A stretch of DNA of 64,000 bases from an uncultured delta proteobacterium (GTDB lineage Bacteria > Desulfobacterota > Desulfobacteria > Desulfobacterales > JAHEIW01), in contig CAVPNL010000006.1 in assembly GCA_963706575.1 (NCBI GenBank), forward strand, positions 32,001 to 96,000. The letters run 5' to 3'. The first letter of the stretch is position 1. Each line of letters begins with the position of its first letter. Shown in pieces: positions 2,904 to 8,819 of this stretch. The notes beneath the pieces are model-generated. The model did no database searches. It had not been told where the DNA came from and was given only the letters and a program-made list of their open reading frames with translations. A program made the translations under genes and the position numbers.

Positions 2904-5900
2904 TCAGCTCCCAACGAACTTCGCTTCCACCCAACCTTTACCGTAGTAGTCTTCCGGCAAATAGGTCAGCTTGGTGCCGTTGAGCTGTTTCATATAGACC
3001 TGGTCAAACTGGATGAAAAAGGTGGGCTGGGTTTCATCTCCGGGGATAGCGGCCAGATCCGGTGGTTGCAGAAAGGGTGCCGTTTTAAAAGATCCGTTTT
3101 TCCAGCTAAATGCTTGCTGTTTGGGTATGCGCATGTAGTCATTCTTACCACCGGCGGATTCAACTCCAGATAATACAGTGAAATAATATCCTTTATAAGG
3201 CTTGAGATCATATCCGAAGCGTTCTTGACCGGCTGGATCGGAATGAGCAATCTTCTGATCGATCAGCTTCATGGGTGTTTGCTTTTTACGGTCGTACAGA
3301 TAAAACATGCCGGCAATATCATCGCCATATTGGGTACGCTGCTTGCGCCTGGCCCGGTCAATTTGCTTGAGCGTCATGACTATTTCCCGTTGGTTTTCGA
3401 TACTCTTCTTAAATTGTGTGTAGCTGGCTTCATCCACCGGGCGCTGCTGCTGGTCGAATTGAATCGTCTTTTTGATTTTTTGAGTAGCCACATCAATTGC
3501 AAAGGTGGCCGGCACTCCCCAGAAATAAATTTTTTTCTGGTTGCCCTCGATGCCGGTATAATTATCCTTCCTTAGGCGACGCCCCCTGGCGTCGAAAGCC
3601 ATCGATTGGATGATCTCAGCTTTGCCGGCATCAAATGTGATTTCATTTTTGTTGAAACTGACCTTAATCGGTTTATTGGAAGGCAGTTTTTGAACGACGA
3701 TTTTGCCATCGGATTTTTTAACAAAGCTTAATCGGTGAATTTCCGATGCCAGGTTCATCTCAATCTTGCCGACGGCCGCATGGACTTTTTTGAGATCTCC
3801 ATTTGAAAGGCCGTAGCTGATATCAGAGGGGCCGTAAAATGAATTGCCGGACAGATAAACCGGTTCACGCTCTCCGAAAAAATGAACCTCCCATCGAATA
3901 TCACCCGTGAAGGGACCCTTTGGCAGGGCCACGTGAAGACTGTCGGTCCATGACATGCCGCCGGCCTCCCGCCAGTTCACTTCCAGACCGGTGAGGTCAT
4001 CTGCGCTGTAATTCACATAGGCCACCATCGGATGGCGATCATAGCGCAGTCTTTTGGGATTCTCCGGCTTATGAGACAGAGCCAGCTCTTTGCCACGGTT
4101 GAGATCAACTTCGATCTCAAATGGGTAGTCGAACATTTCCTGTACCACGGCGACGATGAGCGTGTGGATCTTTCCCTGAAAGCGAGCGGCCGTCGATGAA
4201 GAAGAGTTCATGGATTCACTGGAAGCCAATGACCGGCCTGTTTTGTCAAGAGCGAAAAGCTTGGCGGATACACCGCCGCGAAAGGTAACCTTGGCCACAT
4301 CTTTTTCCAGGCGGCTCAACTTCACCCGCACACCGGCGGATTCCCTTATGGTACCGGGTTTGTTGCCGGCTTCAAATTTTACCCTTTTCAAACTAACCGG
4401 CAAAGCGAGATTAAAGCGGATTTTTGCAGTCCCCAGCGCTTCTGCCGGGATGCCGGGTTTAACGTTCACATGGATATTGCCGGGTGATTCGCTTCCCGGG
4501 CTGATGATATGTTGAAACTGGTTTTCTTCGATCCGCATGATACTGGCACCATCCGTGGATACGACATCCAGCATCTCATAGGTCATCTGGGCCAGGGATG
4601 CATTGGGAACTTCAATTGTGTCGATGGCCAGCGTCATCCTGGGCTGGTCACCGAAGTCCCAGTAATTTCCGGGAAACAGACTTTTCTGAACCACAGCGGG
4701 GATCGTTTTTTTCAGGTTGTCGATATCGACGGTGCTTGATAAACGCGGCGGATGTGTGTAGCGGGCTGCAATCGGATCTTCACTGGGCGCAAGTTCCATG
4801 CCCTGGGCAAACAGCTGGCCGAGAGTAGCTTCCGACAGAGAGGCGAAAAACGCTTTGTCATGCTGCTCTTCCCAGTTAAGCTCGAGCATCAGACGGTTAT
4901 TTTTATGCTCGATTTTATGGCGGTAACGGGGATCGTTAAAAAGCTCGATCAGCTTTAAAACCATGCCGTCGGCATCGAGATCATCCGGGTTTCCCGATCG
5001 CAATTGCTGATAAATGCGGCGGCCATTCACTCCTTTGCGAAACTGCTGGCTATAACGAAGCACCCGACCGCTGGTTTTGTCCAGACGGAATCCGATTGCC
5101 AAAGATTCGACCCCTTTCAAGGGTTCGGATAATTGAGCCAGCACGCCGCCGCCCATTGCAGCCACCATGGCGGCCTGCGGGTTTTGCTGCAGGGCGGGAT
5201 TGCTCTGAATCTTTTTCTGCCAATCATTGCTGAAGTTTTCAGGAATTTTAACGGACAGCAGCACCAGATCCTGAGGCTGGGCGATTGATGCGATCATTTG
5301 CGCCACCCGGGTTTTGAGAATCGAGTCCTGTCCATCATTGAACACCCGGGATAAATTTTCCGGTGCAAAAACCGCTCTATGTTCAATAAATCGAACCCGA
5401 TAGCTGTCGATCGGAAAATTGTCCTGCTTGTCCTCGGGAATGATTTCTTTTTTGATGCGAAAGACGCCCTCGGATGCCGGTTCTAAAAATTGGAAATAAT
5501 TCCCTTGAGATCGCAGCTTCTTTTCCAGGCTTTTGCCCTTGTCACTCTCGGCTAAAATCACCGGCAGAAACGTGTGTTGCGGGTCCGGATACAGGTATAG
5601 CTGGACCTGATTGAATCCGAAAGACTTAAAAATGCCGGTGGTCATTTTATATTTGAGGTCTTTTTTATCCTCCGGCATGTTCTGGTCGATGGCCTCCATC
5701 AGGAGGGGGACATTGATTTTGGCTGCCAGGAAGGGTTCTGGGCGGGCTAGCGGCGCGCCTGCCCGTCTTATAGCCGACGTTTCTCGTTCTTTTTTAGAAA
5801 CAGTTTGCCTGTCTTTTTTGAAAATATTGTCTGCCCTGATTGTTTCTTTGGCCAAATGGCTTAACTTCGATCCGCTGTAGAAGACGCCGATAAACAAGAC

Positions 5901-6554
5901 CGCCAGGACGGCGGCTGCCGCCAGGGCCCAGGGCTTCCGCCACACAGGGGGTTTGGGGGATTCAATATTCTGAATGATCGGAACTTGCGGGGCCTGCTGA
6001 TCTTTTGGCGCTTCAGCGGATTTTTGCGCTGTTACCCTTTTGGAGATTTCATCCTTGAACGCGAAATCCAGGCCGGCAGCCGGGGTCAGTGACAGATTGC
6101 GGCCGCAGGCCTTGCATTTGGTGGTGGTCACCCCCGGCGGAATCTTGGCAGTGTTGATGCTGTACTTTTTGCCGCAGTATAAACAGGTGATCTCTTTTGT
6201 TTCGCTAGTCTGCTGGACCGTTTTCACCGGATCCGGTTTGGCCGCGGCGGCGACTTTGGGCTTTAGTGAAATTGTATGGCCGCAGGCTTTGCATTTGGTA
6301 CTCGCCACCCCCTGCGGGATGGATTTCGGGTTGATCTGATATTGGCGGCTGCAGTACTGACAGGTGATTTGCATCATTCCCGCCTTGGGCGATGGCGCTG
6401 CTTGAGCCGGCCTATCAGGCGGCGCCTGGGGCGCATCTTGACGCAGTGAGATTGAATTTCCGCAGGCTTTGCATTTGGTGCTGGTTACGCCGGATGGAAT
6501 CTTGCTTGAATCCACATTGTAGACTTTGTTGCATTTCGAACAGATGATTTGCAT
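2904..6554 (-). CDS. Large membrane-anchored protein with three N-terminal MJ0042-like zinc ribbons and a large extracytoplasmic region
   Basis: Three CxxC-x17-CxxC repeats (CSKC/CKAC, CQYC/CKAC, CLYC/CKAC), Pro/Ala linkers, one TM segment WALAAAAVLAVLFIGVFY. Confidence 0.8.
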   Translation of the reverse strand: MQIICSKCNKVYNVDSSKIPSGVTSTKCKACGNSISLRQDAPQAPPDRPAQAAPSPKAGMMQITCQYCSRQYQINPKSIPQGVASTKCKACGHTISLKPKVAAAAKPDPVKTVQQTSETKEITCLYCGKKYSINTAKIPPGVTTTKCKACGRNLSLTPAAGLDFAFKDEISKRVTAQKSAEAPKDQQAPQVPIIQNIESPKPPVWRKPWALAAAAVLAVLFIGVFYSGSKLSHLAKETIRADNIFKKDRQTVSKKERETSAIRRAGAPLARPEPFLAAKINVPLLMEAIDQNMPEDKKDLKYKMTTGIFKSFGFNQVQLYLYPDPQHTFLPVILAESDKGKSLEKKLRSQGNYFQFLEPASEGVFRIKKEIIPEDKQDNFPIDSYRVRFIEHRAVFAPENLSRVFNDGQDSILKTRVAQMIASIAQPQDLVLLSVKIPENFSNDWQKKIQSNPALQQNPQAAMVAAMGGGVLAQLSEPLKGVESLAIGFRLDKTSGRVLRYSQQFRKGVNGRRIYQQLRSGNPDDLDADGMVLKLIELFNDPRYRHKIEHKNNRLMLELNWEEQHDKAFFASLSEATLGQLFAQGMELAPSEDPIAARYTHPPRLSSTVDIDNLKKTIPAVVQKSLFPGNYWDFGDQPRMTLAIDTIEVPNASLAQMTYEMLDVVSTDGASIMRIEENQFQHIISPGSESPGNIHVNVKPGIPAEALGTAKIRFNLALPVSLKRVKFEAGNKPGTIRESAGVRVKLSRLEKDVAKVTFRGGVSAKLFALDKTGRSLASSESMNSSSSTAARFQGKIHTLIVAVVQEMFDYPFEIEVDLNRGKELALSHKPENPKRLRYDRHPMVAYVNYSADDLTGLEVNWREAGGMSWTDSLHVALPKGPFTGDIRWEVHFFGEREPVYLSGNSFYGPSDISYGLSNGDLKKVHAAVGKIEMNLASEIHRLSFVKKSDGKIVVQKLPSNKPIKVSFNKNEITFDAGKAEIIQSMAFDARGRRLRKDNYTGIEGNQKKIYFWGVPATFAIDVATQKIKKTIQFDQQQRPVDEASYTQFKKSIENQREIVMTLKQIDRARRKQRTQYGDDIAGMFYLYDRKKQTPMKLIDQKIAHSDPAGQERFGYDLKPYKGYYFTVLSGVESAGGKNDYMRIPKQQAFSWKNGSFKTAPFLQPPDLAAIPGDETQPTFFIQFDQVYMKQLNGTKLTYLPEDYYGKGWVEAKFVGS

Positions 6555-6638
6555 GGCGACTTCCTGATTTTATGGCTTTGGATGATTCGGGTACTCTGAA
6601 GATTTGTGTTGCTGAATTTAGCAGAGTGATTGTGTTAA

Positions 6639-6734
6639 CCCGTTAGCCGGCTGGTCCGATTGCCCGTTGGTTGGGTAAGATGGTTGTTGTTTTTTTAAGG
6701 TTACCGGTTAACCGGCTAACGGGCCAACGGGCAA
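6639..6734. repeat. Intergenic inverted-repeat element built from ~8-bp units
   Basis: CCCGTTAGCCGG (6639-6650) is the reverse complement of 6712-6723; TTGCCCGTTGG (6660-6670) is the reverse complement of 6724-6734. Confidence 0.7.
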
Positions 6735-7023
6735 ACCTACTAAAATTATCTCATATTATTTTGTTGTTCGCAAATTTTTTAACTAACCTCCTTAAAAGAT
6801 AGATGATATGAGCTTCGAACAATTGCAAATGAGGCCGGTGTGAAGTGAACAAGAGAGATCAATTGGCAAGAATCAAAATTAGGATTTGATTTATTTGGCA
6901 ACAACCCATTATGATGTTTGCCGTGTTCCTAAGTTTGCTTTACTTCGAATATGAATGCAAAACTGTGACTCACCCAGTTAGTAACCCGGGCACTAATTAT
7001 TTTTGATTGGATGGGAGTAAAAC

Positions 7024-7770
7024 ATGGAAGAAAATATATTAGCAACCGCCGGAAATCAGCTTACGGAGATCCCAAGGCAAATATGGGAGCAGCATGAAGG
7101 TCAAACATTACAAGACATATCTAAAATGCTTGGCTTTATGACAGAGGCGCATCATCTGATCCGCTATTTTGTCGTCAGGGAACTTCCGCGTATCGGGAAA
7201 CCCATGCCGCCGGAACTCATATCCGACGAACTTAACATACCGCTGTCAAAAACAATTGAAATTCTTGACGACCTGGAGAAAAATCTTTTTTTTCTGGTTC
7301 GAAATGAGCAGGGCGAAATCTCCTGGGCTTTTCCGGTTACAGCTGACAAAACGCCACACCAATTGACCTTCAGCACCGGGGAGAGGCTAAACGCAGCCTG
7401 AGCCGTTGATGCGATTGCCACGCCCTTCGTGCAGGGGCGACTGAGAAAAGAATCCATTTCAGTTACCATAGATACGGTATGTGCGCATTGCAATCATCCG
7501 ATTAAAATCGTGATAGACAGCGAAATGAACTGTGAGGTTGCCCGGGAAAATGCCAGCCTCCATATCTTTTCACCACAGATAGACTGGGAATCTTTTTCAG
7601 CACCGAATATTATTCCCGACTTCTGACAGAAATCCGTATTCTTCAGGTCAGAAGAACACGCGAGAGAACATCTAACAACGGCGGAACCAGTTAATGGATT
7701 GTGCTTAACCCTTGACCAGGCTGTTTATTCAATACCGATTTTTCAAGGTGCCCTCTTTGCATTTAACTAA
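7024..7770 (+). CDS. MerB (organomercurial lyase)-like protein, 248 aa, with two in-frame UGA codons (putative selenocysteines U126 and U201)
   Basis: ORFs 7024-7401 and 7429-7626 and the region to TAA at 7768-7770 share one frame. LNAA-U-AVDA aligns with MerB LYAW-C-ALD and PDF-U-QKSVFFRSEEHA aligns with QSF-C-CHVHFFASVPTA. SECIS-like hairpins follow both UGAs. Confidence 0.85.
7421..7439 (+). promoter_or_regulatory. Putative bacterial SECIS hairpin for UGA 7399-7401
   Basis: CGCCCTT-CGTGC-AGGGGCG stem-loop; loop begins 26 nt after the UGA, G at second loop position. Confidence 0.7.
7635..7660 (+). promoter_or_regulatory. Putative bacterial SECIS hairpin for UGA 7624-7626
   Basis: CGT-A-TTCTTC-AGGTCA-GAAGAA-C-ACG stem-loop; loop begins 18 nt after the UGA, G at second loop position. 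Confidence 0.7.
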
Positions 7771-7818
7771 GTCGCCCGGCGAACCATACTTTAATCACTT
7801 CAAAGGAGGAACCTGATT

Positions 7819-8664
7819 ATGAAGTTTGGTGACGTTTTATACGAATCGAAGGATCGAGTTGCCACGATCATATTGAATCGCCCTGAACGGTTTAACGCCA
7901 TCAGCGAAACCATGCCGGACGATATCGCCGCGGCGTTTGAATATGCCAACGACGATGATGCGGTTCATGTGGTGGTACTGACAGGTGCCGGCCGGGGGTT
8001 TTGCGGTGGCTATGATTTAAAGACCTACGCGGAAAAATCCGGCGAGAACCCGGCCATCCAGGATATGCCCTGGGATCCCATGATCGACTATAAATTTATG
8101 AGCCGCTGTACGCAAAAATTCATGTCGATCTGGCGATGCCATAAACCGGTGATCGCGCGCGTGCATGGTGATGCGGTCGCCGGAGGCAGTGATATTGCCC
8201 TGTGCAGCGACATTATCATTATGAATGAAAAAGCGCGTATCGGTTATCCGCCCTCACGTGTATGGGGCTGTCCGACTACAGCCATGTGGGTGTATCGATT
8301 CGGCGCCGAAAAAGCCAAACAAATTCTTTTTACGGGGGATTTAATATCCGGAAAAAAAGCAGCGGAAATGGGGCTTGTTTTTCAGGCGGTACCCCTCGCT
8401 GAATTGGATGAGGCCGTTAATCGGCTGACGAATCGAATTAAGGGCGTGCCAAAAAATCAGCTCATGATGATGAAAATGATGGTCAACCAGGCTTATGAAA
8501 ATATGGGCCTGGCAGGCACCCAAACCATCGCAACCCTTTTCGACGGTATGGCCCGGCACAGCCCCGAAGGGGTCTGGTTTAAAGAACGCGCCGAGGAAGT
8601 CGGTTTTAAACAGGCGGTCGCCGAACGGGATTCTGGCGACCCGATTCCCGGCAGTAAAAAATGA
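7819..8664 (+). CDS. Crotonase / enoyl-CoA hydratase family protein
   Basis: LNRPERFNA, GRGFCGGYD, VHGDAVAGG motifs; AGGAGG RBS. Confidence 0.9.
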   Translation: MKFGDVLYESKDRVATIILNRPERFNAISETMPDDIAAAFEYANDDDAVHVVVLTGAGRGFCGGYDLKTYAEKSGENPAIQDMPWDPMIDYKFMSRCTQKFMSIWRCHKPVIARVHGDAVAGGSDIALCSDIIIMNEKARIGYPPSRVWGCPTTAMWVYRFGAEKAKQILFTGDLISGKKAAEMGLVFQAVPLAELDEAVNRLTNRIKGVPKNQLMMMKMMVNQAYENMGLAGTQTIATLFDGMARHSPEGVWFKERAEEVGFKQAVAERDSGDPIPGSKK

Positions 8665-8819
8665 ACTCAAATGAAACTGTAGATATCAAGAAGCGCTAAT
8701 TGTTGAGATATTTGGCACCTATCCTATAAACAGATTTTGGGGGGTCAATCGAAATTTTGGTTTGCCTCTAGCACTGCCAAACCAAGTACGACCAAGGCAA
8801 ATCAGTTCACCCGCTCTTG

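Follow-up and report, generated by a model that had tools for sequence, protein, structure and literature searches.

A widespread MerB-like protein with predicted selenocysteine at both catalytic positions, hidden from annotation by two in-frame UGA codons

What is encoded by a reading frame that is interrupted exactly twice, each time by TGA, and then runs on to a TAA? Such a frame lies on the plus strand of the window, the whole stretch of 64,000 nucleotides analysed here, which comes from the genome of an uncultured delta proteobacterium (contig CAVPNL010000006.1, positions 32,001 to 96,000). The preliminary description of this DNA took it for a single 248-aa protein akin to the organomercurial lyase MerB, with selenocysteine (Sec) at both metal-binding positions, and the read-through is borne out by the undivided frame with its terminal TAA, by the Pfam MerB match of the product and by the same pair of TGA codons in its relatives. 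The feature is real, widespread, hidden from annotation and, on the literature searched, undescribed, and a part in mercury chemistry is a good hypothesis for it. Its elements are collected in Table 1, where branch A denotes the group of relatives to which the gene belongs; the two TGA codons are called site 1 and site 2 below.

Table 1. Elements of the MerB-like gene, in window coordinates
Feature	Position	Strand	Basis
Full coding sequence, predicted double-selenocysteine MerB-fold protein, branch A (Sec/Asp/Sec), 248 aa	7024..7770	+	homology, profile alignment, model
Ribosome-binding motif GGGAG, ATG 6 nt further on	7013..7017	+	seen in sequence
N-terminal extension, about residues 1-38; beta-hairpin and helix in the model	7024..7137	+	alignment, model
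TGA, Sec126 (site 1), equivalent of MerB Cys96	7399..7401	+	profile alignment, conservation
Asp129, equivalent of the MerB proton donor Asp99	7408..7410	+	profile alignment, conservation
SECIS-type hairpin 1: 7-bp stem, CGUGC loop, 26 nt after UGA	7421..7439	+	conservation
C153-x-x-C156	7480..7491	+	profile alignment, conservation
TGA, Sec201 (site 2), equivalent of MerB Cys159 and SaoL Sec162	7624..7626	+	profile alignment, conservation
SECIS-type hairpin 2: 6-bp stem, AGGUCA loop, 18 nt after UGA	7639..7656	+	conservation, covariation

Two UGA codons, two hairpins and the selenium machinery of the host

Judged from the sequences compared here, both TGA codons are almost certainly recoded as Sec. 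The opposite view, that they are true stops in a pseudogene or split gene, or tryptophan codons of an alternative code, can point to the protein databases, where residue 125 is the last one in 97 of the best 150 of 449 representatives and where 40 of the best 120 of 3192 matches of comparable length carry Trp at both sites; the Trp/Trp entries presumably result from gene callers reading TGA as Trp. The conservation of the codons makes this view very improbable. Among 37 genomic loci (L001-L037), retrieved with peptide patterns that excluded both TGA sites, the 26 close ones (38-86% identity) are TGA/TGA without exception (26/26), 10 distant ones combine TGC at site 1 with TGA at site 2, and a single fragment shows TGA at site 2. 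In a sample of 401 genomes of the host phylum, 74 matched the family profile and the closest matches were all Sec/Asp/Sec (26/26, a count that includes the host's own genome and three loci identical to earlier ones). The best 80 of 530 confirmed metagenomic loci were likewise TGA/Asp/TGA (80/80), with the reservation that these search patterns overlap the hairpin-coding peptides, so that drifted Cys forms may be under-sampled. Within the same genus the gene is found in 5 of 12 sampled genomes, with two TGA codons in each. Altogether, the 132 branch-A loci have TGA only at the two sites, never TAA or TAG, and the segments downstream of the TGAs are conserved as well as the first segment. That random nonsense mutations were very unlikely had been argued beforehand; the naive chance that two random stops would both be TGA at exactly these two codons is indeed about 4e-6, and the TGA/TGA conservation is much stronger evidence than that estimate.

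The database entries also explain why the gene has been overlooked, as had been foreseen. The 125-aa proteins start at the same ATG as the present gene, their cluster is named only 'hypothetical protein', and NCBIfam contains no family that the 125-aa first ORF matches by itself at E<=1e-5. The remainder of the best 150 of 449 representatives consists of 7 proteins with Cys126 that end at residue 200, 3 Ser/Cys and 3 Gly/Cys proteins, 9 with other residue pairs and 31 other fragments; among the best 120 of 3192 matches of comparable length, 59 are Cys126 proteins that stop at 200, 16 stop at 125, 5 are of other kinds and none contains U. No Cys/Cys member was present in either set, in contrast to canonical MerB. 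The expectation that homologues would carry TGA or Cys at the two sites therefore holds for the TGA/TGA and Cys/Sec forms, the existence of Cys-for-Sec homologues at site 1 being a further point against stops or an alternative code, and fails for a minority of derived Ser/Cys and Gly/Cys proteins and a degenerate branch. The genes of these Ser/Cys, Gly/Cys and triad-less derivatives have kept their full length. Five branch-A derivatives of full length (P0020, P0021, P0043, P0073 and P0129) have lost the catalytic residues and kept the N-terminal extension and the fold motifs; a locus on a long branch is Sec/Gly/Sec (L126:3001-3627), another is Sec/Gln/Val (L121:3001-3591), and L012 and L093 each have a second branch-A copy that is apparently frameshifted.

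A second line of evidence comes from the RNA. According to the bSECIS model, a stem of 4-16 bp stands 16-37 nt behind the UGA and bears a loop of 3-9 nt with a G in its first two positions (PMC13188914); both hairpins of the present gene agree with it, each with G at loop position 2. The loop of hairpin 1 is identical in 114/114 distinct branch-A sequences. A bSECIS-type hairpin follows site 1 in 113/114 distinct branch-A Sec sequences against 8/28 Cys sequences, and site 2 in 178/180 Sec sequences against 2/11 others. In 27 close genes the synonymous sites hardly vary at codons 134-138 and 206-211 and for the most part vary freely in the rest of the gene, by a naive binomial statistic on sequences that are not independent; the frozen codons include GTG (27/27), TTC (27/27) and GGG (26/27), against codon backgrounds of 0.27-0.63. 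Hairpin 2 also covaries: its loop-closing pair in 123 branch-A sequences is U-A in 89, C-G in 30 and something else in 4, and on a tree made with the hairpin residues masked the two closing positions show 12 and 10 changes, with only 13 joint changes. The C-G/U-A swap replaces Arg by Trp at one of the two positions and leaves the amino acid unchanged at the other, and this coupling of an Arg/Trp exchange to a synonymous Ser codon change makes hairpin 2 a clean case of a SECIS element shaping a protein sequence. In the relatives, C-G or U-A closes the loop around GGUC; the window's own copy has A and A at the closing pair (position 7645), a variant also seen in L008. The support from covariation comes from this larger set and not from a 40-sequence alignment, in which covariation measures did not beat shuffles (43/500), and single-sequence folding-energy z-scores of the two hairpin regions (0.58 to -1.07) were not significant. 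Rfam gave no match over 6500-8700, and promoter and terminator scans at the locus stayed at chance level. Conserved and covarying hairpins, like conserved downstream segments, are not what stops or Trp codons would leave behind.

The host itself supplies what such recoding would need. In its genome (91.8% complete), selA, selB, selD and tRNA-Sec (selC) all score over cut-off, as the preliminary description had demanded, and selD is matched twice, each match with a TGA of its own. TGA is an ordinary stop in 731 of 2431 long frames, and the only tRNA with a UCA anticodon is tRNA-Sec, which again speaks against an alternative code. The gene thus combines the marks of a bacterial selenoprotein: UGA codons aligned with conserved Cys of homologues, a bSECIS element behind each UGA, and sel genes in the host. 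Beyond the host, selA is over cut-off in 33 of the 37 genomes behind L001-L037, and its co-occurrence is uninformative within the phylum, where the background is 371/401. In two RNA libraries (X1 and X2), short contigs of relatives, mostly 80-95% alike, lie over the gene; their word shares are small and are not evidence of expression.

Other recoded genes may be present in the same genome. A genome-wide hairpin scan returned 39 of 8122 candidates, mostly chance; one host gene (C6:896638), which we take to hold a formate-dehydrogenase-type Sec motif, has a GGUC loop at 18-nt spacing, as in hairpin 2. Three further places (G000, the host, C3:379690 on the minus strand, C4:552847 on the minus strand and C10:18841 on the plus strand) combine in-frame TGAs and GGUC-loop hairpins with a Cys-rich or HdrA-like context, and are likely to be selenoproteins as well. 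A tRNA-Pyl gene adjoins PylS, which scores over cut-off, at G000:C15:118432-119394, and the host appears to use both selenocysteine and pyrrolysine.

A MerB fold with both catalytic cysteines exchanged

The MerB domain emerges from the read-through product only, which scores 55.9 bits against Pfam PF03243 (cut-off 27) over residues 106-234, in keeping with the proposed kinship. The single protein found no match among PDB sequences with phmmer, but a profile of 47 family sequences matched the solved structures of MerB2 (E 9e-22) and MerB (E 2e-16). The profile alignment places residue 126 on Cys96, 129 on Asp99, 153 on the structural Cys117 and 201 on Cys159, which confirms that the two stops fall on the two catalytic Cys positions and that the Asp is kept. 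Asp129 is retained in 80/80 metagenomic and all full genomic branch-A loci and is invariant in alignment A4; C156 is replaced by Ser or Thr in some members. An alignment-based structure model, in which Sec was entered as Cys, reached a pLDDT of 94.6 and a pTM of 0.92 (single-sequence prediction gave a pLDDT of only 40). All 11 significant Foldseek matches of the model were MerB (E 6e-11 to 1.5e-6), and VIA-align put Hg-bound MerB2 first (Z 22.8, rmsd 2.4, 206 residues aligned) and MerB at Z 20.9, the first unrelated match having a Z of only 5.1. By Pfam threshold and modelled fold the protein thus belongs to PF03243. It scores below the cut-offs of the NCBIfam MerB equivalog models (NF033555, 36.9 of 200 bits; NF009710, 42.3 of 193 bits), and no model of NCBIfam release 20 is passed at cut-off by the 248-aa protein.

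Compared with MerB (PDB 3F0P, 3F2F and 1S6L) and MerB2 (5C17), the present protein shares the fold over about 205 residues and the positions of Cys96, Asp99, Cys117 and Cys159, yet differs in several respects: (i) both catalytic Cys are Sec here, Cys160 is absent and identity to solved MerB is 16-21%; (ii) it has the N-terminal extension of about 38 residues, which is typical of branch A and missing in the branch B and Cys/Sec sequences of the alignment; (iii) its scores fall under the NCBIfam MerB cut-offs; and (iv) its gene lies outside a mer operon, in hosts that mostly have no MerA. Of the canonical signature Cys96, Asp99, Cys117 and Cys159 (PMC8261052), it keeps the equivalents of Asp99 and Cys117 and has TGA/Sec for the other two, and a Sec126/Asp129/Sec201 site would be chemically analogous to that signature while literally different from it.

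The nearest known parallel is SaoL (NF040728), which has Cys99, Asp102 and a single Sec162 that aligns with MerB Cys159 (bioRxiv 10.1101/2022.07.06.499078). Both are MerB-like selenoproteins of anaerobes that carry Sec at the Cys159 position and are truncated by gene callers. However, SaoL contains a single Sec, usually as part of a CU motif, has Cys at the Cys96 position and belongs to a nine-gene SAO locus, whereas the present protein has two Sec, no CU motif (site 2 is Phe-Sec and site 1 is Sec, not Cys) and a place outside the SAO locus. We considered and rejected its identity as SaoL: it scores 53.1 bits against a cut-off of 140, where true SaoL loci score 147-176, and neither the CU motif nor a SAO locus is there. 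SaoB and SaoC were not found in the host genome (91.8% complete) and were found in the control G405; two other genomes with SaoL-scoring genes also have neither. The claim of an arrangement unlike the SaoL CU motif therefore stands for the Sec at the Cys96 position and for the presence of two Sec, and not for site 2, whose Sec is shared with SaoL Sec162. Relative to SaoL, the novelty lies in Sec at the Cys96 position, in the simultaneous presence of Sec at the two sites, and in a distinct family that is found away from SAO loci.

Double selenoproteins as such are known. MbdU, MduS, UXX-star, NF041115 and others share two in-frame Sec codons with the present gene (PMC13188914); none of those listed in Table 1 of that source is MerB-fold, and the only MerB entry among the 119 families of the table is SaoL, with one Sec. 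A term search of PMC12013277 found no mention of MerB, and the literature searched, passages of PMC9312934 and PMC13326102 included, has no description of a double-Sec MerB; Haft and Tolstoy 2025, the bioRxiv supplements and BSepDB Table S2 lay beyond its scope and could mention such a protein. Within it, at least one and probably two undescribed double-selenocysteine families are added to the bacterial selenoproteome, together with several single-Sec MerB-like lineages outside SaoL. Nature would here have exchanged sulfur for selenium throughout a metal-binding active site, and Sec/Sec, Cys/Sec and Ser/Cys variants of it could be compared with one another.

Branches A and B and other selenium-bearing lineages

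Branch A comprises the Sec/Asp/Sec proteins, among which Cys/Sec, Ser/Cys and triad-less forms are nested, and constitutes a single group with an SH-aLRT of 100. The closest named relatives of the present gene are Desulfobacterales MAGs, and members also occur in records titled Nitrospirota, Chloroflexia, Actinomycetota and others. A second group, branch B, is Sec/Glu/Sec and has two copies in the host genome (L038, G000 C1:178126-178485, plus strand; L039, G000 C18:86648-87007, minus strand), which gives this genome three Sec-bearing MerB-like paralogues. Branch B occurs in 38 of the 401 phylum-sample genomes, A or B in 53 and both in 11. The two branches have in common Sec at both catalytic positions and the same hairpin after site 2, but the branch-B paralogues are only 17-19% identical to the present protein, and branch B has Glu for Asp99, no N-terminal extension and a different hairpin 1, with 17-nt spacing and mostly a GGUC-type loop. 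AU tests rejected neither the joining of A and B (p 0.90) nor that of A and SaoL (p 0.99), on deep branches that are poorly supported and with a free tree search that missed better trees. An independent origin of Sec126 in A and B, for which the different site-1 hairpins give only a hint, is not supported by the trees; one origin and two cannot be told apart on them.

Other Cys/Asp/Sec lineages exist, true SaoL (147-176 bits) among them. A distant single-Sec MerB-like gene of this type (L130) shares an operon (L130:452-4549, in G417:C9) with merT, with MerA over cut-off and with genes for a thioredoxin-domain and a ferredoxin-domain protein; L129 is similar and lies near a MerE-like gene. Sec at the Cys159 position is thus compatible with a mercury locus, and the L130 gene is a candidate for a selenoprotein of a mercury-resistance locus. 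Haft and Gwadz knew of no selenoprotein in mercury resistance (bioRxiv 10.1101/2022.07.06.499078). Further single-Sec lineages outside SaoL (L027-L034, L036, L037, L133, L136 and L137) come from records titled Rokubacteria, Acidobacteriota and Chloroflexota, and in most of them the GGUC hairpin recurs behind the TGA at the Cys159 position; the record of L027, titled Nitrosocosmicus, has no selA that reaches cut-off, and the contig of L027 is probably mis-binned. Near branch B there is also a Cys/Glu/Cys MerB-like lineage (L140, L142-L147); in 6 loci the gene immediately upstream of it is flavodoxin-like.

Candidate function and the mercury genes of the carriers

In MerB, Cys96 and Cys159 chelate R-Hg, Asp99 protonates the carbon, and Hg(II) is regarded as passed on to MerA (PMC10114901, PMC8261052); in computations it can also be removed from MerB by thiols (PMC4525700). 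By analogy, the reading to which we incline, with a confidence a little short of even, is that of a stand-alone, cytosolic seleno-organometal lyase of MerB fold. SelB, acting on the in-frame hairpin after each UGA, would insert Sec at 126 and 201; the two selenolates would chelate the cation of an organometallic soft metal, methylmercury being the prime candidate, and would thereby weaken the metal-carbon bond; Asp129 would deliver the proton, and the hydrocarbon would be released. With selenolates, the protein would be able to capture traces of its substrate even where thiols and sulfide compete for it. Since carriers are mostly without MerA, cellular thiols or sulfide would take over the metal, or else turnover would be low. 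The gene itself stands alone, is patchily distributed and lies outside mer and SAO operons. We infer substrate, catalysis and metal release from the fold and the triad positions, which are those of MerB: the fold extends over the whole domain, the catalytic triad positions are kept and Asp129 is invariant. Against the lyase reading count the absence of mer and SAO neighbours in branch A, MerA in only 1 of 26 carriers, the absence of a Cys/Cys member, the low equivalog scores and identity, and the persistence of Ser/Cys, Gly/Cys and triad-less forms. Hg-Se bonds are, moreover, harder to break than Hg-S bonds, which together with the absence of MerA counts against it.

The neighbourhood leaves room for a different use of a genuine double-Sec site. 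We compared 209 loci, 132 of them from branch A, with flanks of at most 3 kb; many were short and some duplicated. The branch-A neighbourhood is not conserved, and neither mer nor sao genes appeared among the recurring neighbour clusters of the 209 loci. MarR-type regulators recur upstream in 18 loci, SAM methyltransferases are neighbours in 4 + 4, and an enoyl-CoA hydratase adjoins the gene in 7 branch-A loci; in branch B, a peroxiredoxin-like protein and amidases recur. The protein could be a redox or electrophile enzyme that acts in the MerB pocket on an organic substrate through a diselenide or selenenyl intermediate, with no metal. We consider this somewhat unlikely. Most selenoproteins are redox enzymes (PMC13188914), the neighbours just named are not metal transporters, three Sec paralogues in one genome exceed the apparent need for trace mercury, and a MerA link is missing; yet a simple dithiol redox site needs no proton donor, and both branches keep Asp or Glu at the MerB position, related lineages lie in mer loci (L129, L130, L132), and the cited literature describes no redox activity for the MerB fold. 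MerR-family regulators near 6 branch-A loci, also upstream, score under the cut-offs of the metal-responsive MerR, CueR, ZntR and CadR models; on the side of the lyase reading, they and the MarR-type regulators would suit inducible detoxification.

Selenolates bind soft metals tightly, and the same site could serve as a non-catalytic or single-turnover scavenger or chaperone that holds Hg, Cu or Ag between two selenolates. With this would agree the lack of MerA in 25 of 26 carriers, the persistence of half-site Ser/Cys forms and the ability of the MerB site to bind Cu(II) once Asp99 is changed (PMC10114901). The strict conservation of Asp129 points instead to proton transfer, and a stoichiometric sink that needs two UGA recodings would be expensive to make and poor in yield; we hold this possibility to be unlikely, more so than the redox enzyme.

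None of the gene's neighbours in the window is a mer gene. Downstream of it an enoyl-CoA hydratase is encoded, upstream the opposite strand carries the gene of a zinc-ribbon protein, and an HNH protein and an ATP-grasp protein are further neighbours. The upstream gene (2904-6554, minus strand), divergent from the MerB-like one, has a product of 1216 aa, with three zinc-ribbon repeats at the N-terminus and a long stretch that matches nothing in Pfam. The best MerA model score in the host genome (91.8% complete) is 344 of 454 bits, under cut-off. A mer operon with a MerA partner, the usual setting of MerB, is thus not found here; it is not a strict criterion, and about half of the genomes with merB also have no merA (PMC8261052). 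In the phylum sample, MerA is present in 1/26 branch-A carriers against 15/375 others.

It is possible, though doubtful, that a large family of organomercury lyases, equipped with two selenolates and independent of MerA, lies hidden in sulfate reducers and related anaerobes. If so, about 13% of the sampled phylum genomes (53/401) would hold one and half of these would also methylate mercury (HgcA in 26 of the 53 genomes with branch A or B, MerA in 1); all such genes, cut at the first UGA, would be invisible to merB surveys; and there would be an enzymatic route for the unexplained mer-independent degradation of methylmercury to methane and Hg(II) in anoxic sediments, tied to selenium supply. 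Anaerobic methylmercury degradation that proceeds with no mer operon has no validated enzyme (PMC10114901). For this process the double-Sec MerB-like gene is a concrete, assayable candidate that metagenomic merB counts miss. A 2020 survey recorded MerB in 10 deltaproteobacterial genomes, and no MerB-only genome there had HgcAB (PMC8261052). An apparent association of branch A with HgcA (14/26 carriers against 105/375 others, p 0.008) was lost in genomes of at least 4 Mb (11/18 against 34/76, p 0.29; up to 8 genomes had no listed size). The host has an intact hgcA match at G000:C24:15398-16375 and a second, hgcA-like match in three pieces at C6:512100-513080.
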